This document shows, piece after piece, positions 1-23,473 of a stretch of DNA of 64,000 nucleotides. A program made the translations under genes and the position numbers. The notes below the pieces were generated by a model. The model ran no database searches, had not been told where the DNA came from, and saw nothing but the letters and a program-made list of their open reading frames with translations. The DNA is from Thermoleophilia bacterium. GTDB taxonomy: Bacteria > Actinomycetota > Thermoleophilia > UBA2241. The first letter of the stretch is position 1, and each line of letters opens with the position of its first letter. The stretch covers positions 2,761 to 66,760 of the forward strand of contig DASRZL010000098.1 in NCBI GenBank assembly GCA_035686425.1, in the 5' to 3' direction.

Positions 1-196
1 GGCTTTCACCAGACGTGGGAGCGGCGCAAGCACCGTCTCTGGGACGTGATCGGCGGCAAGCCGCACCTCCCGCTGCCGCATCGCGACGGCCGCCGCGATC
101 GCCACGACCGCGGGCCGCGCGGAGGTTCACACGAGTCGCAGGGGTAGGCGGCCGGCCGGCCGGCGTCAGGTCGGTCCGGCCGGCTCTCCGCTGCCC

Positions 197-1564
197 TCAG
201 GCAGGCGGCCTCGAGGGGCCGTCCGCGCCATCGCCGGGCTCGCGAGCCACCGCAGTCGCGTACGCGCCGAGCGCCAGTTCGTAGACCACCAGCGCCGCGA
301 CGACGGCCAGCGCCGCGACCAGGGAGCCGGTGGTGAAGAGCAGCACGACCAGCGCCACGGCGATGCCGGCGACGCGCAGCAGATCGAGGTGCGTGGCCGT
401 CCAGCGCTTGGCGCGGGTGTCCGGCGCGGAGAGGTCCGCGGCGATGCCGAGCAGTCCGGCGAAGCCGCGGCTCATGGCGTCCAGCCACGCCGGCCTGCCG
501 GCGAGGATGGCGGCGACGGCGACGATCACGCCGGCTACGGCGATCCAGACGAAGAACGGGTGCAGGCTGCCGATCACCGAGCTCACGATCGACTTGGCCA
601 CCGCCGCGCCGTCTTGGGACGTCGCGGCGACGACGGCGGCCTCTTCCGCCTGCCCCTCGATCACCCGGGCGGCCACGACGCCGATCAGGGCGCCGAGGCC
701 GAGCCACAGGGCGGTGCGCCGGCGGCGGACAGACACCAGCAGGGCCGCGCCGATCAGGACGATGGTCAGGACGACCAAGGGGACCGCCAGATCGGTGAGG
801 CGCCCGAGCGTTCGCTTGGCCTCGTAGGCCTGGTTCCCCTCGAGCAGGGTGACGGAGCCGATGTCCGCCGGCAGCTCCCTGCCCAGCGCGTCCTGCAGCA
901 ACGTGTGGATATCGTCGGGGGCGGTGGCCGGGTCGATCGGCGGCAGTGTGACGTCCCGCCCGAGTAGCTGTGGCAGCTTCACTTCGAGTCGCTGCAGCGC
1001 TATGGCGATGATCGGCAGCAGGTTCAGCTTCACGTCGTTGCGGCCAACGGTGACGTTGCGGCTGTCGTCCCGCGGCGCGGCGAGGAGCTGCTCGTGAGCC
1101 AAGCGGTTGCTGTCCGCCCAGAGGCGCTGCGCGAGCTCGGTGCCGAGGAACGTGTCGACCTCCTCGACGAGGAAGCCTTCGGGGTTCGCCGCGGGCAGCG
1201 CGGCGAGGAGCTCGGCGTCCGACGGCAGCGCGTCCGCGATCCGAGCGCTCAGGTCGGTGATCTCGAGCGCCTTGGCGGCAATGTACCTGCTGACGGCATC
1301 GCGGGCTTGTGAGTCCTCGGCTAGGGGGGTAACGGCCGTCACCCACGGGTCGGTATCGAAGACGACGCTGCGGGACCACAGAGCAAGCGCACTCATCAGG
1401 ATGGCGAGCGCGGAGGCGACGACGAGCAAGAGCGCGACCCAGGAGCGGATGCGCGGGGCGCGCTTGGAGTCCAGGACGCGCTTCACCGGCGCCAGGGCGC
1501 GAGCGGCGCCGGCGTCCGCCTCGCCGCGTTCCTCCGGATCCGTGCCCGGCGTCTTCTCTGCCAT
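197..1564 (-). CDS. Hypothetical integral membrane protein
   Basis: Long ORF with an N-terminal TM helix, a soluble domain and several C-terminal hydrophobic helices. Start moved from the ORF-track call to ATG 1564 (MAEKTPG). Confidence 0.75.
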   Translation of the reverse strand: MAEKTPGTDPEERGEADAGAARALAPVKRVLDSKRAPRIRSWVALLLVVASALAILMSALALWSRSVVFDTDPWVTAVTPLAEDSQARDAVSRYIAAKALEITDLSARIADALPSDAELLAALPAANPEGFLVEEVDTFLGTELAQRLWADSNRLAHEQLLAAPRDDSRNVTVGRNDVKLNLLPIIAIALQRLEVKLPQLLGRDVTLPPIDPATAPDDIHTLLQDALGRELPADIGSVTLLEGNQAYEAKRTLGRLTDLAVPLVVLTIVLIGAALLVSVRRRRTALWLGLGALIGVVAARVIEGQAEEAAVVAATSQDGAAVAKSIVSSVIGSLHPFFVWIAVAGVIVAVAAILAGRPAWLDAMSRGFAGLLGIAADLSAPDTRAKRWTATHLDLLRVAGIAVALVVLLFTTGSLVAALAVVAALVVYELALGAYATAVAREPGDGADGPSRPPA

Positions 1565-3142: not shown

Positions 3143-4672
3143 ATGCTGTTCCCAACCATCACATTCGCCCTCTTCTTCCTGCTGGTCTTCGTCGGGAACT
3201 GGCTGCTCATGCCCCGGCAAGGGGTGTGGAAGCCGTTCATGCTGATCGCCAGCCTGGTGTTCTACGGCTGGTGGGATTGGCGCTTCGTGCTGCTGCTGGC
3301 GCTCAGCGCGGTCGCCAACCAGTTCTTCGCGCTCTGGATCGCGGGGATGCCGCAGCGCGGCTCCGGGCGCAAATGGGCGCTCGCCGTCGCCGTCGCGGCC
3401 AACCTCGGCGTGCTCGGCGTGTTCAAGTACTACGGCTTCTTTGTCACCTCGGTCGCCGACTTCTTGAGCGCGCTCAATCTCAACGCCGACCTGCCGCTCC
3501 TGCGCATCCTGCTGCCGATCGGCATCTCGTTCCTGACCTTCCGCGTGCTCAGCTACGTGATCGACGTGTACCGCGGCACGCTGCGGCCGGCGTCCTTGCT
3601 CGACTTCTCCGTGTACGTCGCCTTCTTCCCGTATCTTGCCGCCGGCCCCATCGCTCGCGCCTCCGAGTTCCTGCCGCAGCTCAGGGGGCCGCGCGACCCC
3701 CGGAACGTGGACACGGCGCGCGCCTTCTTCCTGATCTTCGGCGGCCTGGCGAAGAAGATGCTGATCGCCGACTACCTGGCGACCCACATCGTCAACGGAG
3801 TGTTCACGACGCCCGGGCAGTACTCGTCCCTCGAGGTGCTGGTCGGGATCATCGGCTACTCGGTGCAGATCTACTGCGATTTCAGCGCCTACTCCGACAT
3901 CGCCATCGGTATCTCGCTCCTGCTCGGGTTCGAGTTGCCCGACAACTTCAACGCGCCCTACACCGCCGCGTCCGTACAGGACTTCTGGCGGCGCTGGCAC
4001 ATGACGCTCTCCCGCTGGCTGCGGGACTACCTCTACATCCCGCTGGGTGGTAGCCGCAGGGGCACGACGCGAACGTATGTGAACCTGATGCTCACCATGG
4101 TTCTCGGTGGTCTCTGGCACGGCGCCGGCTGGACGTTCGTGTTCTGGGGCTTCCTGCACGGCGCGGCGCTCGTCATCGAGCACGCCCGCGTGATCCGCAG
4201 CAAGGGCCGCGCCCTGGTGGTGCAGCGCCAGCGCAGGGAGCTCGCGGCGGCCCTCGAGGTCTTGGGCGAGGCCGCGCCGCCGACGGACGATCGCGGCGCG
4301 GCCGGGCCGTCTCTCGAGTACGACCACCGGCCGTGGCACGGCGCTGTGTGGCCGCGCATCGGTGTCTTCGCCTTCGTGACCTTCGCCTGGATCTTCTTCC
4401 GCTCCGACACGTTCGCCGCGGCGGTGAGCGTCATCGCGCGGCTCTTCCAGAGTTGGGGCACAGTGGGCGCGGCCGTCACGCCCGGCGTGGTCCTCGCCAT
4501 CGTCGTGGGCATCGGAGTGCAGTACGTCCCTCGTTCGGTCTGGCAGCGCGGCGAGGCCGGACTTTCGACGCTCAACCCGGCGCTGCAGGGCGTTCTCCTG
4601 GCCGTGGGCCTGATGCTCCTCGACGTCCTCGGTCCCACCGGACCCGCGGCCTTCCTCTACTTCAAGTTCTGA
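3143..4672 (+). CDS. algI: MBOAT family O-acyltransferase (AlgI/PatA-like), copy 1
   Basis: Starts MLFPT; contains LPIGISF, YCDFSAYSDIA, FWRRWHMTLS and GLWHGA; polytopic. Confidence 0.9.
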   Translation: MLFPTITFALFFLLVFVGNWLLMPRQGVWKPFMLIASLVFYGWWDWRFVLLLALSAVANQFFALWIAGMPQRGSGRKWALAVAVAANLGVLGVFKYYGFFVTSVADFLSALNLNADLPLLRILLPIGISFLTFRVLSYVIDVYRGTLRPASLLDFSVYVAFFPYLAAGPIARASEFLPQLRGPRDPRNVDTARAFFLIFGGLAKKMLIADYLATHIVNGVFTTPGQYSSLEVLVGIIGYSVQIYCDFSAYSDIAIGISLLLGFELPDNFNAPYTAASVQDFWRRWHMTLSRWLRDYLYIPLGGSRRGTTRTYVNLMLTMVLGGLWHGAGWTFVFWGFLHGAALVIEHARVIRSKGRALVVQRQRRELAAALEVLGEAAPPTDDRGAAGPSLEYDHRPWHGAVWPRIGVFAFVTFAWIFFRSDTFAAAVSVIARLFQSWGTVGAAVTPGVVLAIVVGIGVQYVPRSVWQRGEAGLSTLNPALQGVLLAVGLMLLDVLGPTGPAAFLYFKF

Positions 4673-14513: not shown

Positions 14514-15851
14514 TCAGATCCTGACCCGCTCGCGTTCTTCGGCGCCCCACAACACGACCGTGTCGCGGCCGTCGGCCTTGGCCCGGTAGAGCGCCTTGTC
14601 GGCGAGCTCCATGAGCTCGTCCAGCACGGTGGCGTCGCGCGGGCAGGTGGCGACCCCGACGCTGATCGTCACGTTGGCCTCGGGCGGGAGCCCGAGGCCC
14701 GTGTAGCGCGTGCCGCCGAGCGTGCGGCGGATGCGGTCGGCCACGAAGTACGCGGCATCGCCCGGCGTACTGGGCAGCAAGACGGCGAACTCCTCGCCGC
14801 CGTGCCGGGCGCAGATGTCGGGCTTGCGCAGCACGTCTTTCATCGCCCTCGCCACGGTCTGCAGGACGCGGTCGCCGGTCGCGTGCCCGTAGGTGTCGTT
14901 GAACTGCTTGAAGTGGTCGATGTCGACCATGAGCACGCTCAGCGGTTCCTGGTGCCGCAGGCTGCGCTCGATCTCCTCGCCGGCGCGGTTCATGAAGTAG
15001 CGCCGGTTGTACAGCCCCGTCAGGTGGTCGGTGACCACCTGACGGCGGATGGCGTCGTACTTGTGGGCGTTCGTGAGCGCGCTCTGGACGTGGTTCTGGA
15101 GAGCGCCCAGGATGTCGTCCGTCAGCAGTTCCGCATACTCGCCGCTGGTGGAGGTCGTGAGCAGCGCCATATCGCCGACGTTCTCCACCTTGACCGGGAT
15201 CACCATCTGATGGGTCATCGTGTGCGGGAACAGCGTGCAGACGTGGCCCTCGACGCGCGTCAGCTTCCCGGATGCGATGGCCTGGCGCACCGGGCAGTCG
15301 GGCGAGTACGCGCAGCACTCGGCCGAGAGCGTCGGCGTGATCACGCCCTGCTTACCCTCGAGCGAGAAGGCGCGTGCCTCCGAGTCCAGCAGCAGCAGCG
15401 CCCCGAAGTCCGCGTGCAGAAAGGTCCTGCTGCGCGAGAGCACGCGCTCGACCGTCTCAAGGTACGGCAAGGCCGCGTTCATCTCGCGCCCCAGCACGCC
15501 GACGTCCATGAGCTGGCGGTTCAGCGCCTGCACGCGCATGAGGTCGTCCTTGATGCTTTGCGCGACCCACTCCTTGTCCTTGGACGCCGTGAACACGGCG
15601 ATCAGGGTGCGGACGAGGTAGCCGAGCTCGCGCGCCTCGTCGCGGTAGAAGGGGTCGTTGCGCTCGTAGTCTCCGCTGAGCCGTGCGCGCGACCGGCGGA
15701 CAAGGGCGTTGATGGGGCGGAAGAGCAGCAGGTCGAACGCCACGGCGATGACGACGAAGAGGGCGACCAACACGGCGGCGATCTGCCAGGCCGACTGCGG
15801 GTCCACGACGTAGGCGAGCAGCACGAACGCCGCGGCGAGCGCCAGGGCCAC
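14514..15851 (-). CDS. Membrane-anchored GAF + GGDEF diguanylate cyclase (start uncertain, may extend upstream)
   Basis: DHLTGLYNRR, DIDHFKQFNDTYGH..GD, intact GGEEF, and RxxD I-site (RKPD) five residues upstream. Confidence 0.9.
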   Translation of the reverse strand: MALALAAAFVLLAYVVDPQSAWQIAAVLVALFVVIAVAFDLLLFRPINALVRRSRARLSGDYERNDPFYRDEARELGYLVRTLIAVFTASKDKEWVAQSIKDDLMRVQALNRQLMDVGVLGREMNAALPYLETVERVLSRSRTFLHADFGALLLLDSEARAFSLEGKQGVITPTLSAECCAYSPDCPVRQAIASGKLTRVEGHVCTLFPHTMTHQMVIPVKVENVGDMALLTTSTSGEYAELLTDDILGALQNHVQSALTNAHKYDAIRRQVVTDHLTGLYNRRYFMNRAGEEIERSLRHQEPLSVLMVDIDHFKQFNDTYGHATGDRVLQTVARAMKDVLRKPDICARHGGEEFAVLLPSTPGDAAYFVADRIRRTLGGTRYTGLGLPPEANVTISVGVATCPRDATVLDELMELADKALYRAKADGRDTVVLWGAEERERVRI

Positions 15852-16041
15852 GACCGCGGACGTCTTCAGTTCGAGGCTGACGCCTCTCTTGTGCCCGAGG
15901 CCGTCGCCTCGTCTCTGATCGTCGGGTGTGGCCGTAGTCGGCCTCGATTCGGGAGCCTGCCGTGCCAGTTCACGGTATCGGCAGATGCGTGCAGACCATG
16001 ATAGACGGACGCGCCGCGCGGGCTCGCCGGATCGGCGCCGC

Positions 16042-16230
16042 TCAGCCCCTGAAGCGGTTGAGGGTGCGCCTGTCGAGGGTCGGCCGGTGGATGGTGCGGC
16101 GTTCGCCGATGCGCCGGTCGCGCAGGTAGTACGGGCAGACGGCGCAGTAGCAGCTGCAGCTGAGGCGTGTGTCGACGTCGGCGACGCAGATCAACGGGGG
16201 CTGGGGGGTTGTGCTCGGCCTGTGCGTCAT
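16042..16230 (-). CDS. Small Cys-rich, Arg-rich hypothetical protein (CSCYCAVC; DRRIGERR..DRR)
   Basis: 62-aa ORF with GGTGA upstream, co-oriented between the receiver and the DGC. Confidence 0.5.
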   Translation of the reverse strand: MTHRPSTTPQPPLICVADVDTRLSCSCYCAVCPYYLRDRRIGERRTIHRPTLDRRTLNRFRG

Positions 16231-16319
16231 CTGATCACCACGTGCGTTCTACGCCGCTGAGATGCCGGCTCCTGCCCGTCGCCGGTCCCCGCGACGGGCC
16301 TGGCCTTGGGCCCGCGCCC

Positions 16320-16688
16320 CTATGTGCTCATGTAGCTTTCCACCACGGAAAGGATCTGGGCGATGCGAAACGGCTTCGTGATGTAGCCGTCGATGCCGAC
16401 GTCCGTGGCACGCTCCATGTCGGTCGCCATGGCCTTGGCCGAGAGGCCGACGATGACGATGTCCTTCGTCGTCGCGTCGGCCTTGAGCTCGGCCACCGCT
16501 TCGTAGCCGCTCAGGACCGGCATCATCATGTCCATGAGGATGAGGTCGGGGTGGTGCTGCCTCGCGAGGTCCACGGCCTCGCGCCCGTTCGTCGCCTTGT
16601 AGACCGTGTAGTCCTGGGTCTCCAGGGACATGGACACGATGCTCAGGATGTCTGGGTCGTCGTCGGCGACCAGGATGGCTCTTGTCAA
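16320..16688 (-). CDS. Single-domain response regulator receiver (CheY/DivK-like)
   Basis: ILVADDD, LMDMMMP (phospho-Asp), YITKPF. TTG start with GAGGAG SD. Confidence 0.92.
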   Translation of the reverse strand: MTRAILVADDDPDILSIVSMSLETQDYTVYKATNGREAVDLARQHHPDLILMDMMMPVLSGYEAVAELKADATTKDIVIVGLSAKAMATDMERATDVGIDGYITKPFRIAQILSVVESYMST

Positions 16689-16701
16689 CGTTTGCCCCTC
16701 C

Positions 16702-18540
<1,839 letters not shown>

Positions 18541-18663
18541 CTGGTCCGCCCGTCCTCCGAAACGCTGGTAGAGTATTCTATCCCGGACCCCCGGAATCCG
18601 CTCTCGAGCGTCCGGCCAGCCGGCCGCACATGGAGCCCGGTCGGTCGAAAGGAGGACCCCGTC

Positions 18664-20043
18664 ATGTCCGTCCCTCGTCTGGTCGTGTGCGGGCTCGAGC
18701 CCGGGCCCGCCGTCGCCCTCGCCTCCGGCGCGCTGCTCGCCGCGTTCGCGGACTATCGTGTCGTCCGCCCCATCCTCCTCGGCGTGGATCTGCCCTTGTG
18801 GCGCCTGCTCCACGGCGCGTCGGCGCGAGCGCCCAGGGTCCTCGATCCCAAGCTGATCGACGACGCGGTCGCCGGCGAGCTGTACGACTCGTGGGCGGCC
18901 GACACCGACCTCGCGATGCTGGTGGCCGTGGAGCCGGCGTTCGATCGCTGGCAAGGCGTGAAGGGCTCGCGCGCAGTCGACGTCGCCGTCGCGCTCGACG
19001 CCCCACTCGTGCTCGTCGTCGACGCCCGCGAGCGCGGGGCGACCGCGGCCGCGGCTGCGTGCGGCGCCAGGCTCCTGGCGGGGCGCGCCGAGTTCGCCGG
19101 CGTCGTGGTGATCGGCGGTGACGAGCACGGGCCGGCATCCGAGCTGCGGCACATCCTCGAGGAGACGGCCAAGCTACCCGTGCTCGGTTGGGTGCCGCCC
19201 CGGCTGAGCGAGCAGTTCGCGCGCCAGTACGGCGCGGGTCGGGAAGCGCTGCGCCAGATGGGTCCGCAGCTCGTCGAGGCCGGCGGAGCGACGCTCTGCC
19301 GCGAGGCCGGCGCCCACCTCGACCGCGAGGGGCTGGAGGCGGCGGCCGCGCGCCGCGGCTACCTGCCGGCGCGACCGCGTCGCCTTCTCGCGCCGCTGCC
19401 TGCGGCCGTCGGGCTGACGCTCGCCGTCGGCTGGGGTCCGCCGCTCGAGCCGTTCGCCCTCGAGGCTATGGACGTTCTCAAGGCGGCGGGCCTCACGCTC
19501 GCGCCGCTGCACATCGGGCGCGATCACGAGGTGCCGGCCGGGGTGAACGGTCTCCTGCTCGCCGGTCTTCTCGATGAGGAGGAGCTGCCGGCCTTCGCCG
19601 GCAACGACGCGCTCAGGGCGAGCATCGCCGATGCCGTGGCCGCCGGGCTTCCGACGCTCGCCTTCGGCGGCGGCGCCCTTCTGCTCCTCCGTCGGCTCGC
19701 CGACAGTCGCGGGCGCACGCACGAGCTCGCCGGCGTGCTGCCGGCCGAAGCCGAGCTCCTCGAGTGGTACGAGAGACCCCGGTACGTCCCCGCCGTGGCG
19801 GCGCGTGAGAACCCCTACGACGAGGGTGAGACCACACTGTACGAGCTCTTCGATCTCGAGTTCCTGACGCTTCAGCAGGAGGCGTTCGCGTACCGCGTCG
19901 GCGATGCCGGGGAGGAGGGGCAGGTCGAGGGCTTCGTGCACGGACGCTGCCTCGCTACCACGCTCGTGCCTTCCCTGCCGGCGGTGCCGGACCTGGCCGC
20001 CGGCTTCATCGCCGCGATGCGGTCGGCGGCCCCGGGCGAGTGA
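18664..20043 (+). CDS. CbiA/CobB (cobyrinate a,c-diamide synthase)-like protein with degenerate ATPase and glutaminase sites
   Basis: Scaffold matches the CbiA pattern (PRLVV.G, APLVLVVDAR, AGVV, PVLG..P, N..LRASI...G.P.LA.GG). The P-loop GKT and the glutaminase Cys are absent. GGAGG SD. Confidence 0.7.
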   Translation: MSVPRLVVCGLEPGPAVALASGALLAAFADYRVVRPILLGVDLPLWRLLHGASARAPRVLDPKLIDDAVAGELYDSWAADTDLAMLVAVEPAFDRWQGVKGSRAVDVAVALDAPLVLVVDARERGATAAAAACGARLLAGRAEFAGVVVIGGDEHGPASELRHILEETAKLPVLGWVPPRLSEQFARQYGAGREALRQMGPQLVEAGGATLCREAGAHLDREGLEAAAARRGYLPARPRRLLAPLPAAVGLTLAVGWGPPLEPFALEAMDVLKAAGLTLAPLHIGRDHEVPAGVNGLLLAGLLDEEELPAFAGNDALRASIADAVAAGLPTLAFGGGALLLLRRLADSRGRTHELAGVLPAEAELLEWYERPRYVPAVAARENPYDEGETTLYELFDLEFLTLQQEAFAYRVGDAGEEGQVEGFVHGRCLATTLVPSLPAVPDLAAGFIAAMRSAAPGE

Positions 20044-20098
20044 GCACGGCGGCCGTCGCCTGCGCCGCCTCCGGCGCCGAAGAGCAGGATCGGCTGCC

Positions 20099-21766
20099 GT
20101 GACCTTCTCCGCGCTCGAGGCATGGCTGCGTACGCGTCGCGGCCTGCTGGCGCTGTGGCTGGTCACGACCCTCGCCGTCACACTCGTCACGCTGCTGATG
20201 CAGTGGGGCGGCGTCCCCGGGTGGGACGACGCTGCCCACGCCTACAAGATCCTGCTGCTGCGCGACGGCGACTCTATCTTCTGGGACACCTACTGGTACG
20301 GCGGCGGCTACGGCGCCGTCACCTACGGGTTCATCTTCTACTGGATCGCGCAGTACGTCCCCGGCACGCTCATCGTCATCCTCGCCGCAGGGACGATCCC
20401 CGTGACGTTCTACGTCTACGTGCGTGACATCTGGGAGATCGACGACGTCTGGCCGGCCTGGGGCTTCGCCCTGGTCGTGGCGTTCTATCTGGCGCACGGC
20501 CAGGACCCCTTCCTGCTCGCCCTTGCGCTCACCATGGGCGGGCTCGCGCTTCTCGCCCTGCGGCATCCGCTCTGGGCAGCCCTGCCCGTGGCCATCGGGA
20601 TCTTCGCCAATCCGATGGGCCTCGTCGTCGCAGCGCCGTTCATGCTCACCGACTTCATCGTCCGGCCGGCGGCGCGGCGGCCGTACCTTCTGTTCGCCGC
20701 CGCCGTCGCGCCGGCGGTCATCGCCCGATTCCTGCTCGGGTGGGCGTTCTCGGAGCCGGGGTCCTACCTCAACGAGACGTCGCAGCTCATGGTCTTCCTG
20801 GGTTTCGCCCTCTTCGGGCTCGCTCTGGCCGGCGTGAACGCGGTCCACCCGCGCCGGCCCTTCCTTTTCCTGTTCCTGGTCTACGCCGTGATCTGCCTCA
20901 TCTCGTTCCTGACGCCCGGAAGTCAGCTCGGCAACAACATCGGCCGCTTCTTCATGGTCTTCGGACTGCCGCTTCTGCTCCTCCTGCGACACACGCGCCT
21001 GCGGCGGCCGTTTCCCCACGGGGAGCTCGCCATCATCCCTATCTTGCTCTTCGTCGTGCTGCAGTTCGGTACCGCGACCAGTCACTTCCTCAACGCGGTC
21101 GAGCGGCCCCAGACCACGCGCGCCTACTTCGCCCCGGCCCTGGACGCGGCCGCCGAGCTGTACGACCCGGACTACCGGGTCCACATCGTCGCCCTTCGCC
21201 GGCACTGGGAGGCGTTCTACTTCCCCGAAGCCGGCTACCCGATCACGCGCGGCTGGTATCGCCAGGCCGACGCGATCCACAACAGCTTCTTCTACACGCC
21301 CTACGACGCGGCGGACTACGTCCCTTGGCTGCAGAGCATGGGCGTGCAGTACATCTTCCTGCCGGCCGACGGACCACTCGACCCCTGGAGCCGGCGAGAG
21401 GCCAGGATCCTCGAGAGCTCGCCGGCCTTCGTCTTCGTGGAGCAGGCCGGCGCCTGGCGCATCTACCGGCTGCGGGATGCCCGGCCGCTGCTGGTCCCAC
21501 AGCCCGAAGTATCCGGCGCGGGCAGTGCGACGATCGGCGCCGTCGACCATGAGCGCATCGTCTTCACCGTGACCTCACCGGGCAGGTACTGGCTCAAGTT
21601 CACCTCGTCGCCGTACTGGGTGCTCGAGGGAGGTCCGGGGACGGTGCGACCTCGCCCGGACCGGTTCATGGACCTGGACCTCGGGCAGGCCGGCACCTAC
21701 GCGCTGCGCTTCGAGGTGACTCCCGCCAAGGCGCTCGACACCGCGGCGGCGAGGCTGGGCCTGTAG
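20099..21766 (+). CDS. Polytopic membrane protein, GT-C-like glycosyltransferase architecture
   Basis: First TM followed by a loop with WDDAAH acidic motif, many TMs and a C-terminal soluble domain. GTG start inferred. Confidence 0.6.
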   Translation: MTFSALEAWLRTRRGLLALWLVTTLAVTLVTLLMQWGGVPGWDDAAHAYKILLLRDGDSIFWDTYWYGGGYGAVTYGFIFYWIAQYVPGTLIVILAAGTIPVTFYVYVRDIWEIDDVWPAWGFALVVAFYLAHGQDPFLLALALTMGGLALLALRHPLWAALPVAIGIFANPMGLVVAAPFMLTDFIVRPAARRPYLLFAAAVAPAVIARFLLGWAFSEPGSYLNETSQLMVFLGFALFGLALAGVNAVHPRRPFLFLFLVYAVICLISFLTPGSQLGNNIGRFFMVFGLPLLLLLRHTRLRRPFPHGELAIIPILLFVVLQFGTATSHFLNAVERPQTTRAYFAPALDAAAELYDPDYRVHIVALRRHWEAFYFPEAGYPITRGWYRQADAIHNSFFYTPYDAADYVPWLQSMGVQYIFLPADGPLDPWSRREARILESSPAFVFVEQAGAWRIYRLRDARPLLVPQPEVSGAGSATIGAVDHERIVFTVTSPGRYWLKFTSSPYWVLEGGPGTVRPRPDRFMDLDLGQAGTYALRFEVTPAKALDTAAARLGL

Positions 21767-21797: not shown

Positions 21798-22895
21798 ATG
21801 CCGCGCCATCGCCTCGCTCCCGACGTCTTCGCCCTGCCCGTCGACCGCATCCGCGAGGGGTACTACACCGACGCGTATTTCAACGGGTCCAAGCGCGTGC
21901 TTGAGGCCAAGGGCCGGCATCCGACGATGACCATGCAGGTCTTCCAGAAGACAGACGGCGCAGTGCTCGGCGGCATGGACGAGGCTCTGGCGACGCTGCG
22001 TCTCTGCGCCGGTCACTTCGAGGGCGAGGGGGCCACGCGGCGGTGGCGCGACGGCTGGGACCAGCTCGTCGTGCACGCGCTCTACGACGGCGACGAGCTC
22101 TCGGCGTGGGAGACGGTGCTGACGATCGAGGGCGACTACAGCCTCTTCGCACACCTCGAGACCGTGTACCTCGGCGTGCTCTCGCGGCGCACCCTGGTCA
22201 GCACCAACGTGCGCCGCGTCGTCGAGGCCGCGCGCGGCAAGACCATCCTCTTCTTTCCCGCCCGCTTCGACCACTACCGGGTCCAGACCGGCGACGGCTA
22301 CGCGGCGCACATCGCCGGAGCCATCGGCGTCAGCACCGACGCCCAGGCGTCGTGGTGGGGCGGCAAGGGCATCGGCACGGTGCCGCACGCGCTCATCGCC
22401 GCGTACGGCGGCGACACCGTGGCGGCGGCGCAAGCGTTTGCCGATCTGTACCACCCCGAGATCAACGTGACGGCGCTGGTCGACTGGGACAACGACTGCG
22501 TGGCGACCAGCCTCGCCTGCGCGCGGGCGCTCGGTAAGCGGCTCTGGGGCGTCCGTCTCGACACGAGCGAGACCATGGTCGACCGCTCGCTCTGGGACGA
22601 CATGGGTGTCTTCCGGCCGAACGGCGTGGCGCCGGAGCTTGTCCACGCGGTACGTCGCGCGCTCGACGATGAAGGATTCCAGAGCGTGCACATCGTCGTC
22701 AGCGGCGGCTTCGACGCGGAGCGCATCCGGCGCTTCGAGGCGGCCGGCGTGCCGGCCGACGCCTACGGGGTCGGGAGCAGCCTGCTGCGCGGCAACACCG
22801 ACTTCACGGCCGACGTCGTCCTGCTCGAGGGAGAGCCCTGCGCCAAGGTGGGCCGGCGTCACCGTCCGAACCCCCGGCTCGAGCGCGTGACGTAG
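21798..22895 (+). CDS. pncB: Nicotinate phosphoribosyltransferase-like (type II PRTase)
   Basis: YTDAYF, GTVPHALI (phospho-His position), GVRLDT, IVVSGGF, GVGS. Adjacent to a nicotinamidase-like gene. Confidence 0.8.
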   Translation: MPRHRLAPDVFALPVDRIREGYYTDAYFNGSKRVLEAKGRHPTMTMQVFQKTDGAVLGGMDEALATLRLCAGHFEGEGATRRWRDGWDQLVVHALYDGDELSAWETVLTIEGDYSLFAHLETVYLGVLSRRTLVSTNVRRVVEAARGKTILFFPARFDHYRVQTGDGYAAHIAGAIGVSTDAQASWWGGKGIGTVPHALIAAYGGDTVAAAQAFADLYHPEINVTALVDWDNDCVATSLACARALGKRLWGVRLDTSETMVDRSLWDDMGVFRPNGVAPELVHAVRRALDDEGFQSVHIVVSGGFDAERIRRFEAAGVPADAYGVGSSLLRGNTDFTADVVLLEGEPCAKVGRRHRPNPRLERVT

Positions 22896-22921
22896 CTCCC
22901 GCTGCCGGGTATCCGACCGGT

Positions 22922-23473
22922 ATGGACGATTCCACGAAGCCGCGCCGGGCGATCGTCGTCGTCGACATGCTGGTCGGCTTCTGCCGGGGCGGCAGCCTGT
23001 ACAGCCCGCGCTACGACCCTCTGGTCCCGCGCATCAGGGAGCGGCTCGCGGCCGCCGAGGCGGACGGCATCCCCGCCGTCTTCCTGGTCGACACGCACAC
23101 CCCCGACGACCCCGAGTTCGCGATGTTCCCCGCCCACTGCGTGGAGGGCTCCGGGGAGGGCGAAGTGATCCCGGAGCTCAAGGAGTTCGCCGACCGAGGG
23201 ACTGTGGTGCGCAAGAGCACGTTCTCCGGGTTCCACGGCACCGAGCTCGCGGAAGTGCTCGCGCGGCTCGCGCCCGATGTCGTCGAGGTGGCCGGCGTGT
23301 GCACCGACATCTGCGTGCTGCACACGGTCGCCGGCCTCAGGGCGCAGGGCTACGAGGTGCTGGTGCACAAGGAGCTCGTCGAGACCTATGACGCGCCGGG
23401 GCACGACGCCGAGGAGTTCAACCGCTTCGCGCTGGCACACGTCCGCGACGTGCTGGGCGCGAAGGTCGAGTGA
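22922..23473 (+). CDS. pncA: Cysteine hydrolase / isochorismatase family, probable nicotinamidase
   Basis: Catalytic D (VVDM), K (RKSTF) and C (GVCTDIC); metal ligands D-x-H and H-C. Confidence 0.7.
   Translation: MDDSTKPRRAIVVVDMLVGFCRGGSLYSPRYDPLVPRIRERLAAAEADGIPAVFLVDTHTPDDPEFAMFPAHCVEGSGEGEVIPELKEFADRGTVVRKSTFSGFHGTELAEVLARLAPDVVEVAGVCTDICVLHTVAGLRAQGYEVLVHKELVETYDAPGHDAEEFNRFALAHVRDVLGAKVE

Follow-up and report, generated by a model that had tools for sequence, protein, structure and literature searches.

A CobB/CbiA paralogue predicted to be catalytically dead and retained under selection in two families of Thermoleophilia

Introduction

All described branches of the CobB/CbiA protein family, comprising the cobyrinate/hydrogenobyrinate a,c-diamide synthases CbiA/CobB, the Ni-sirohydrochlorin a,c-diamide synthase CfbB and the sirohaem amidase DsrN, are active tetrapyrrole amidases, and CfbB and DsrN illustrate the re-use of the scaffold for other tetrapyrroles (PMC7617358). 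Here we describe a member of this family in a 64,000-nucleotide stretch of the genome of a Thermoleophilia bacterium (assembly GCA_035686425.1, contig DASRZL010000098.1, positions 2,761 to 66,760 of the forward strand; hereafter the window), in which the residues required for catalysis have been replaced in both domains. We refer to it as the CobB paralogue; its position and those of its neighbours are given in Table 1.

The paralogue resembles canonical CobB/CbiA (NF002204, TIGR00379; GATase_3, PF07685, with a CbiA/AAA_26-type N-terminal domain) in its full-length collinearity, its two-domain fold and a sequence identity of about 27-32%, and it has in common with these enzymes structural glycines, prolines and leucines together with D61, D94, N314 and Y374. 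It differs in having no catalytic residues, in scoring below the family cut-offs, in lying outside any cob cluster and in having a distribution that is independent of cob genes. CfbB and DsrN have the same architecture but are ATP- and glutamine-dependent amidases encoded in cofactor operons, whereas the paralogue has neither the catalytic residues nor such a context. The CobB/CobQ-type class-I glutamine amidotransferase (GATase) fold of its C-terminal domain also occurs in GatD of the MurT/GatD peptidoglycan amidotransferase, but GatD keeps its cysteine and works with the Mur-ligase-like MurT, while the paralogue has a glycine at that position and a partner domain that is similar to dethiobiotin synthetase (DTBS).

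A functional analogy, if the role we propose below is right, would be found in KipI and KipA, which act on the kinase KinA in Bacillus subtilis and are enzyme-derived auxiliary regulators of histidine kinases, forming "three-component systems." Like the paralogue as we would interpret it, these proteins are enzyme-descended, kinase-adjacent and non-catalytic, but they have no kinship with it in sequence or fold, and the pairing of the paralogue with a kinase is facultative and the interaction only proposed. In the literature we found no account of an inactive or pseudoenzyme form of CobB/CbiA, nor of a kinase-linked GATase pseudoenzyme, and in databases (JGI names) the proteins studied here are called "cobyrinic acid a,c-diamide synthase" or left unnamed.

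Results and Discussion

Catalytic Residues and Fold

The paralogue was aligned with the canonical CobB encoded in the same genome and with 79 canonical CobB/CbiA sequences. The Walker A motif or P-loop, SGEGKT, reads EPGPAV (G16A, K17V and T18A, in the context EPGPAVAL), at positions conserved in 100%, 100% and 96% of the 79 sequences, respectively. The substrate loop FKVGPDYLD has become LLGVDLPL (K38L, P41V and D45L, with D42 kept), RNLD has become RVLD (N59V, with L60 and D61 kept), the VVEG motif that supplies the Mg-binding/catalytic Glu-Gly pair reads VAVE (E87V, G88A), and N150 and H198 are replaced where ILN reads VVI and ERHLGL reads LRQMGP. Farther along the chain D258 is replaced (DxAFxFYY reads GPPLEPFA), AECGG, which holds the nucleophilic cysteine of the glutaminase, reads AFGGG (E334F/L, C335G), GHEFH reads LYELFD (H394E, H397D), and SYIHVH reads TTLVPS (Y433T, H435V/Y, H437S). 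The canonical enzymes have 50 alignment columns with a conservation of 95% or more. The paralogue departs from them in 28 of these columns; the other 22, which it retains, are mostly structural glycine, proline and leucine, plus D42, D61, D94, E305, N314 and Y374.

These losses, residue by residue, show a protein that is predicted to be unable to bind ATP-Mg, because the Walker A lysine and threonine and the Mg-binding glutamate are gone, and unable to hydrolyse glutamine, because the nucleophilic cysteine is a glycine and the histidines are gone; with neither activity, it is predicted not to amidate corrinoids. A first-pass annotation of the window, made from the sequence alone, had described an end-to-end CbiA/CobB homologue with each of its catalytic motifs replaced, and every detail of that description was borne out by the two alignments.

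Family models recognized the paralogue at scores well under their thresholds. The NCBIfam model for CobB, NF002204, aligned with residues 33-398 (E = 3.5e-26; 92 bits against a cut-off of 254), TIGR00379 aligned with residues 34-450 (69 bits against a cut-off of 261), the CfbB model NF033195 matched with E = 2.6e-14, and Pfam GATase_3 and AAA_26 both matched below their gathering scores. The paralogue thus fails the curated CobB/CbiA cut-offs, while the true CobB of its own genome scores 397 bits; full-length homology and its placement in the tree described below nevertheless put it inside the CobB/CbiA superfamily.

An AlphaFold2 model built from an alignment of 36 sequences had a pLDDT of 88.2 and a pTM of 0.89. 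Searches of the PDB by sequence, with the paralogue and with the true CobB of the genome, returned no match and no CobB/CbiA structure, and the fold assignment therefore rests on Foldseek matches at the level of domains. These were to GatD (6gs2 and 5n9m being the best; E 5e-10, target TM-score about 0.62) and HisH, both class-I glutamine amidotransferases, for the C-terminal domain, and to dethiobiotin synthetase and MinD for the N-terminal domain; the whole chain matched CTP synthase, which follows the same synthetase-plus-GATase logic. The model indicates that the paralogue retains a two-domain, CobB-like fold, collinear over its full length, in agreement with the fold that the first-pass annotation had assumed.

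Gene Integrity and Purifying Selection

Codon-position GC contents of 0.83/0.51/0.89 in a genome of about 70% GC identify the plus-strand frame as coding. The ATG is preceded by GGAGG at a distance of 8 nt, as part of a Shine-Dalgarno sequence that is kept in 21 orthologous loci. Public genomes yielded 25 full-length orthologues, all intact, 455-460 amino acids long, starting with MS(V/A)PR and ending in an identical TGA, and a word-indexed search found 291 relatives, of which the best 120 are of near-constant length. By the NG86 method the ratio of nonsynonymous to synonymous substitution (dN/dS) was 0.12-0.34 in close pairs (dS <0.5), with a median over all pairs of about 0.31. Flanking genes treated in the same way gave 0.29 (kinase), 0.34 (GT-C-fold gene), 0.28 (epimerase), 0.21 (nicotinate phosphoribosyltransferase) and 0.18 (Rrf2).

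Positions 18661-18813, 19651-19842 and 20022-20170 of the window are covered by estuary and sediment metatranscriptome contigs that are identical or nearly so; they are weak evidence that the gene is transcribed, as DNA carry-over is possible.

Long open reading frames (ORFs) come cheaply at this GC content, and the possibility that the gene is a decaying pseudogene or a chance ORF has to be weighed on that account: the same frame is already open from 16813, an antisense ORF spans 19174-20190, and a few relatives carry frameshifts or a stop (G048, G049, G061, G068). A third-position GC content (GC3) of 0.89, 25 orthologues that are intact and agree in start, stop and Shine-Dalgarno sequence, dN/dS well below 1, persistence across two bacterial families and coverage by RNA contigs all speak against decay, and many of the broken copies come from long-read metagenome-assembled genomes (MAGs), which are prone to indel errors. 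We give a pseudogene practically no weight. The gene instead shows the hallmarks of a pseudoenzyme, with catalytic residues lost, the reading frame intact and purifying selection across species, and we are highly confident that it is dead for amidation and under selection. The earlier proposal of a maintained pseudoenzyme, with an intact 459-codon frame and a strong Shine-Dalgarno sequence, is supported by the orthologues and by dN/dS values similar to those of the flanking genes.

An alignment of 22 orthologous intergenic regions revealed an element, TGGTAGAGT-ATTCTA, extending to TGGTAGAGT-ATTCTATCC, that is kept in more than 20 genomes and is separated from the Shine-Dalgarno sequence GAAAGGAGGAC by a GC-rich, variable leader. 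From its conservation in the alignment, TGGTAGAGT-ATTCTA would be an extended -10-like site, and the longer TGGTAGAGT-ATTCTATCC may combine an extended -10 with a start-site or operator element. A strict scan of the intergenic region for sigma-70 promoters and terminators made no call, the -10-like element included.

Distribution and Origin

Searched exhaustively with HMMER, a set of 1.84 billion cluster representatives gave 1096 hits. Among the best 150 of these, the P-loop and the cysteine are both lost only in the cluster of the query (with its fragments and frameshifted versions) and in P0154 and P0168; the others are canonical CobB/CbiA proteins with 25-32% identity to the paralogue. P0154 and P0168 belong to a Gaiellales-type sister clade, here called clade b, that is 30-34% identical to the proteins of the window's own family (clade a). 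Of 301 Thermoleophilia genomes sampled, about 52, from 18 genera of one Gaiellales-type family, were found to carry clade b, as intact ORFs of 447-456 amino acids with a conserved N-terminus of their own, PTH(R/K)TGLA...VRYHHLG.

Against 49 canonical sequences, clades a and b form a single branch (SH-aLRT 100). They have the derived changes C335G, E334L, D258G, F263P and G300A in common; the replaced positions of the N-terminal domain differ between them. The paralogue family is thus old and restricted to two families of Thermoleophilia, and the simplest history consistent with the tree would have the gene duplicated and inactivated once, long ago, in an ancestor of these Thermoleophilia.

Other observations concern clade b and more distant relatives. 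Conserved histidine motifs (PTH, HH) occupy the former P-loop and substrate-loop sites of clade b, and a gene for a 63-residue CooT-like protein, of a nickel-chaperone family, lies tail-to-tail with the clade-b gene in nearly all loci that carry a kinase and in one without (L038), making a metal link conceivable for clade b. Two proteins from other organisms, P0165 and P0170, are otherwise canonical CobB/CbiA proteins that keep the P-loop and lack only the glutaminase cysteine (AEGAG, AEDGG); judging from these motifs, they may depend on ammonia or work with a partner.

Constraint on the Former Active Sites

Former active-site faces were defined from strand and secondary-structure positions in the model and compared with the rest of each domain by per-site entropy. 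In clade a the faces were the more constrained in both the N-terminal (0.64 vs. 1.05, p = 1e-4) and the C-terminal domain (0.38 vs. 0.86, p = 3e-4), and the same was found for the C-terminal face of clade b (0.81 vs. 1.32, p = 7e-4). Residues 331-370 hardly vary in clade a, reading TLA(F/L)GGGALLLLRRLADSRGRxHELAGVLPAEAELLEWY, although real CobBs do vary in this stretch outside the nucleophile elbow, and the part DSxGRxxEL.G..PAE.E is common to clades a and b. These patterns point to residues 331-370 and the old pockets as retained binding surfaces and not inert scaffold. Because the former active-site faces stay the most constrained, binding would most likely take place at the old clefts, and the ligand might be a small molecule, a protein partner or both.

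Invariant face residues could also mark a new active site, with the CobB scaffold rebuilt for a different reaction that needs neither ATP nor glutamine. Clade a offers many charged or aromatic candidates for such a site, namely E12, D42, W46, R58, D61, D94, R95, W96, S102, R103, D120, R122, R124, E394, D397 and E399. Beyond the canonically conserved ones, however, the only polar residues common to clades a and b are R35, D112, R122, R231, E364 and R381, so no common new catalytic constellation is visible, and the gene neighbourhoods described below show no metabolic pathway context. We consider a neo-enzyme quite improbable.

Independence From B12 Synthesis

The same genome encodes a canonical CobB, on a different contig (C170), where it is followed by CbiC after 0.4 kb and by CobQ after a further 8 kb; the first-pass annotation had raised the question of a canonical cbiA elsewhere, and this is the answer. 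In 89 genomes of the order, the paralogue was found in 75, canonical CobB in 14 (15 with a split copy) and CobQ in 34, while CbiC was confined to genomes with CobB. The paralogue was present in 13 of 15 genomes with CobB, in 62 of 74 without it, and in 45 of 54 that have neither CobB nor CobQ (Fisher p = 1.0 for every contrast). No cob genes were found within about 10 kb of the paralogue, as the first-pass annotation had noted, and no cob, btu or haem genes were found in its neighbourhood in either clade; Rfam scans of positions 14-24 kb of the window and of nine related loci detected no cobalamin riboswitch. The paralogue acts independently of B12/corrin synthesis.

Two suggestions from the first-pass annotation bear on this result. 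That the paralogue is a regulatory or structural heterodimer partner of canonical CobB would fit the window's own genome, which carries both proteins, but the genes are on different contigs, 62 of the 75 genomes with the paralogue have no canonical CobB, and the paralogue is no commoner in genomes with CobB than in those without. As an obligate role this is effectively refuted, and we regard any such partnership as very unlikely.

The other suggestion was a corrinoid or tetrapyrrole sensor. More broadly, the paralogue might have kept the substrate cleft of CobB and bind a corrinoid or other tetrapyrrole without modifying it, serving as a sensor, carrier or chaperone. All known relatives act on tetrapyrroles (PMC7617358). 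The cleft residues D61, D94, N314 and Y374 are kept in both clades (D42 in clade a), the former pockets are more constrained than average, and many genomes of the order have CobQ without CobB/CbiC and so probably import corrinoid precursors. The presence of the paralogue is nonetheless statistically independent of CobB and CobQ, neither riboswitches nor cob, btu or haem neighbours accompany it, and the substrate-loop residues K38, D45 and N59 are replaced, and differently so in clades a and b. A sensor of this kind found no support, and we judge a tetrapyrrole binder of any sort improbable.

A late-pathway-only cobamide gene set, with CobQ and without canonical CobB and CbiC, was seen in 20 of the 89 genomes (G003-G075 census), which suggests salvage of corrin intermediates. 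The idea that the paralogue substitutes for CobB in these 20 genomes was rejected, as three of them lack it and its frequency is equal in all classes of genome; CbiC is also missing from them, so the paralogue fills no gap in a de novo pathway.

Gene Neighbourhood and the Sensor Kinase

As stated in the first-pass annotation, the paralogue is divergent from a sensor kinase and upstream of a GT-C-like gene, and our analysis agrees, the GT-C label holding at the level of fold. The locus is syntenic throughout the window's family (f1), in the order GGDEF gene, cysteine-rich ORF, REC regulator and kinase on one strand, followed by the paralogue, GT-C gene, nicotinate phosphoribosyltransferase and nicotinamidase on the other.

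TABLE 1. Position of the CobB paralogue, its domains and neighbouring features. Coordinates are those of the window unless stated otherwise.
Feature	Coordinates	Strand	Description
CobB/CbiA-like gene, predicted catalytically dead	18664..20043	+	459 codons, TGA stop; 459-aa product
N-terminal DTBS/MinD-like domain	residues ~1-240		AlphaFold model, Foldseek
C-terminal GATase_3-like domain	residues ~250-459		AlphaFold model, Foldseek
Divergent intergenic region, kinase/CobB paralogue	18541..18663		alignment of 22 orthologous intergenic regions
TGGTAGAGT-ATTCTA	18566-18580		putative extended -10-like site
TGGTAGAGT-ATTCTATCC	18566-18583		conserved element, longer form
GAAAGGAGGAC	18647-18657		Shine-Dalgarno sequence of the CobB paralogue
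GGAGG	18651-18655		core of the Shine-Dalgarno sequence
Sensor histidine kinase	16702..18540	-	612 aa; PilS-like six-transmembrane (6TM) region, GAF-like middle, HisKA, HATPase_c; divergent from the CobB paralogue
Stand-alone REC (CheY-like) regulator	16320..16688	-	122 aa, without output domain; directly after the kinase
Small cysteine-rich ORF	16042-16230	-	precedes the GGDEF gene
GGDEF diguanylate cyclase with the preceding cysteine-rich ORF	14514-16230	-	downstream of the REC gene
GT-C-fold membrane protein	20099..21766	+	555 aa, ~10 transmembrane helices and C-terminal beta domain, conserved GWDD loop; 55 nt downstream of the CobB paralogue
NAD salvage pair	21798-23473	+	nicotinate phosphoribosyltransferase, then isochorismatase-family nicotinamidase
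CooT-like gene of clade b	3618-3809 of locus L034		also in L036, L039-L046, L063, L065

The arrangement in which the regulator follows the kinase and the kinase is divergent from the paralogue was found in all of about 25 clade-a loci. In clade b, 13 of the 30 loci, and L034 and L035 as well, have the gene divergent from a kinase of 615-622 amino acids with the same domains (PilS-like 6TM, GAF, HisKA, HATPase_c), which is followed by a REC-only regulator of 119-120 amino acids. The window's kinase is 38-42% identical to the clade-b kinases over about 560 residues that include the TM/sensor, GAF and kinase-core regions, and the two are orthologous by this comparison. All other clade-b neighbours (gyrB-gyrA, a Zn peptidase, CooT, chorismate mutase and a BFN-domain gene) are entirely different from those of clade a, leaving the kinase-regulator pair as the only neighbourhood retained across the split. 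In the clade-b tree the kinase-bearing order is basal, and the kinase-less sequences make up one derived clade (18 sequences, SH-aLRT 100) and one singleton. Strict co-occurrence of paralogue and kinase was not observed, whereas adjacency to the orthologous kinase-regulator pair is conserved; because either module survives loss of the other, the coupling is ancestral and prevalent but facultative.

The REC regulator gene has a TTG start and a GAGGAGG Shine-Dalgarno sequence. A 180-residue plus-strand ORF at 16167-16709 that seemed conserved in tblastn was rejected as an antisense shadow of this gene. The GGDEF protein carries an N-terminal region of 270 residues without family assignment, and the kinase and regulator may feed into cyclic di-GMP signalling.

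In the other direction, the GT-C gene is probably co-transcribed with the paralogue. Pfam and NCBIfam gave no match for its product; its AlphaFold model (pLDDT 88.5) matched AglB, STT3, DPY19, PglB, ALG9 and EmbB in Foldseek, with E values of 4e-5 to 1e-3 for the first four. A 1.5-kb insert between the paralogue and the GT-C gene in five relatives was considered as a mobile element and rejected, as it is a tandem GT-C paralogue. Tandem duplicates with 40-47% identity occur in several relatives (L013, L018-L020, L027, L025, L028), which places the protein in a GT-C family of some size, as yet without a name, in Thermoleophilia. In most f1 genomes the GT-C gene is followed downstream by the NAD salvage pair, whose first product scores 359 bits against a cut-off of 378 (NF005529).

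One or two GT-C genes follow the paralogue within 0-60 nt in every clade-a locus, and the RNA contig at 20022-20170 spans the junction of the two genes. Together with the fold supported by AlphaFold and Foldseek, this raises the alternative that the paralogue assists the GT-C protein as a subunit on the cytoplasmic side, a scaffold or a recruiter of substrate or donor for envelope glycosylation, with the kinase a mere neighbour. Clade b, however, has no adjacent GT-C gene (CooT, chorismate mutase and BFN-domain genes being found instead), and where clade-a genomes have deleted the paralogue, the GT-C gene remains and adjoins the kinase; a dedicated GT-C subunit seems to us a poor prospect.

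Proposed Role

The explanation we favour as a whole, though tentatively and somewhat short of calling it probable, is that the paralogue descends from cobyrinate/hydrogenobyrinate a,c-diamide synthase, is non-catalytic, and is kept by selection and ancestrally coupled to the module of PilS-like 6TM/GAF kinase and REC-only regulator, which would be its original functional context. Lacking an output domain, the regulator must act on some other protein; the paralogue might be an auxiliary component of the kinase module or its regulated target, in effect a third component, and the f1 operon would also deliver the GT-C glycosyltransferase. That the paralogue is functionally linked to its kinase and regulator is, taken by itself, possible but less than probable. 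A fuller version, in which the paralogue is the third component of a Thermoleophilia-specific module, would have the rebuilt pockets bind a cytoplasmic metabolite (for instance glutamine, a tetrapyrrole or a nucleotide-sugar-related compound) and the 331-370 surface either modulate the kinase or receive the output of the REC protein, coupling metabolic state to GT-C envelope glycosylation; in all its parts this is unlikely.

Several points weigh against the favoured explanation. One derived lineage of clade b, comprising 18 of the 32 sequences and at least 8 genera, has lost the kinase and regulator but kept the paralogue, and a full-length kinase orthologue was not found anywhere in the kinase-less clade-b genomes. 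Conversely, five f1 genomes (G022, G024, G035, G043, G064) have the kinase, regulator and GT-C gene but no paralogue; kinase and GT-C gene are now directly divergent in them, which indicates clean deletion. Adjacency to the kinase could be inherited synteny rather than function, and simple control of the divergent operon at the level of transcription would be unexplained, given that the regulator lacks a DNA-binding output. The N-terminal face of clade b is no more conserved than the remainder of its domain by entropy, and pocket residues differ between clades a and b, which argues against one common ligand. The dN/dS values come from NG86, which underestimates dS in GC3-rich genes, the grouping of clades a and b may be inflated by long-branch attraction, and the census of cob genes, being based on MAGs, is affected by genome incompleteness.

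Implications

An immediate consequence is a hazard of mis-annotation: under its present database names the paralogue would have a step of B12 synthesis wrongly credited to about 60 of 89 genomes that do not have the pathway, in abundant, uncultured Thermoleophilia of soils and sediments. For the protein family, this is a clean and ancient case in which an enzyme scaffold was kept after full loss of its chemistry in both domains, in two families and at about 30% identity, and since all known members are active tetrapyrrole amidases, a non-catalytic branch extends the known range of the CobB/CbiA/CfbB/DsrN scaffold. The constrained former pockets, together with a kinase and REC-only partner, provide a concrete and testable hypothesis of a non-catalytic, possibly signalling role, and if the paralogue is indeed a third component of the kinase module, it would give the CobB/CbiA scaffold its first role in signalling.

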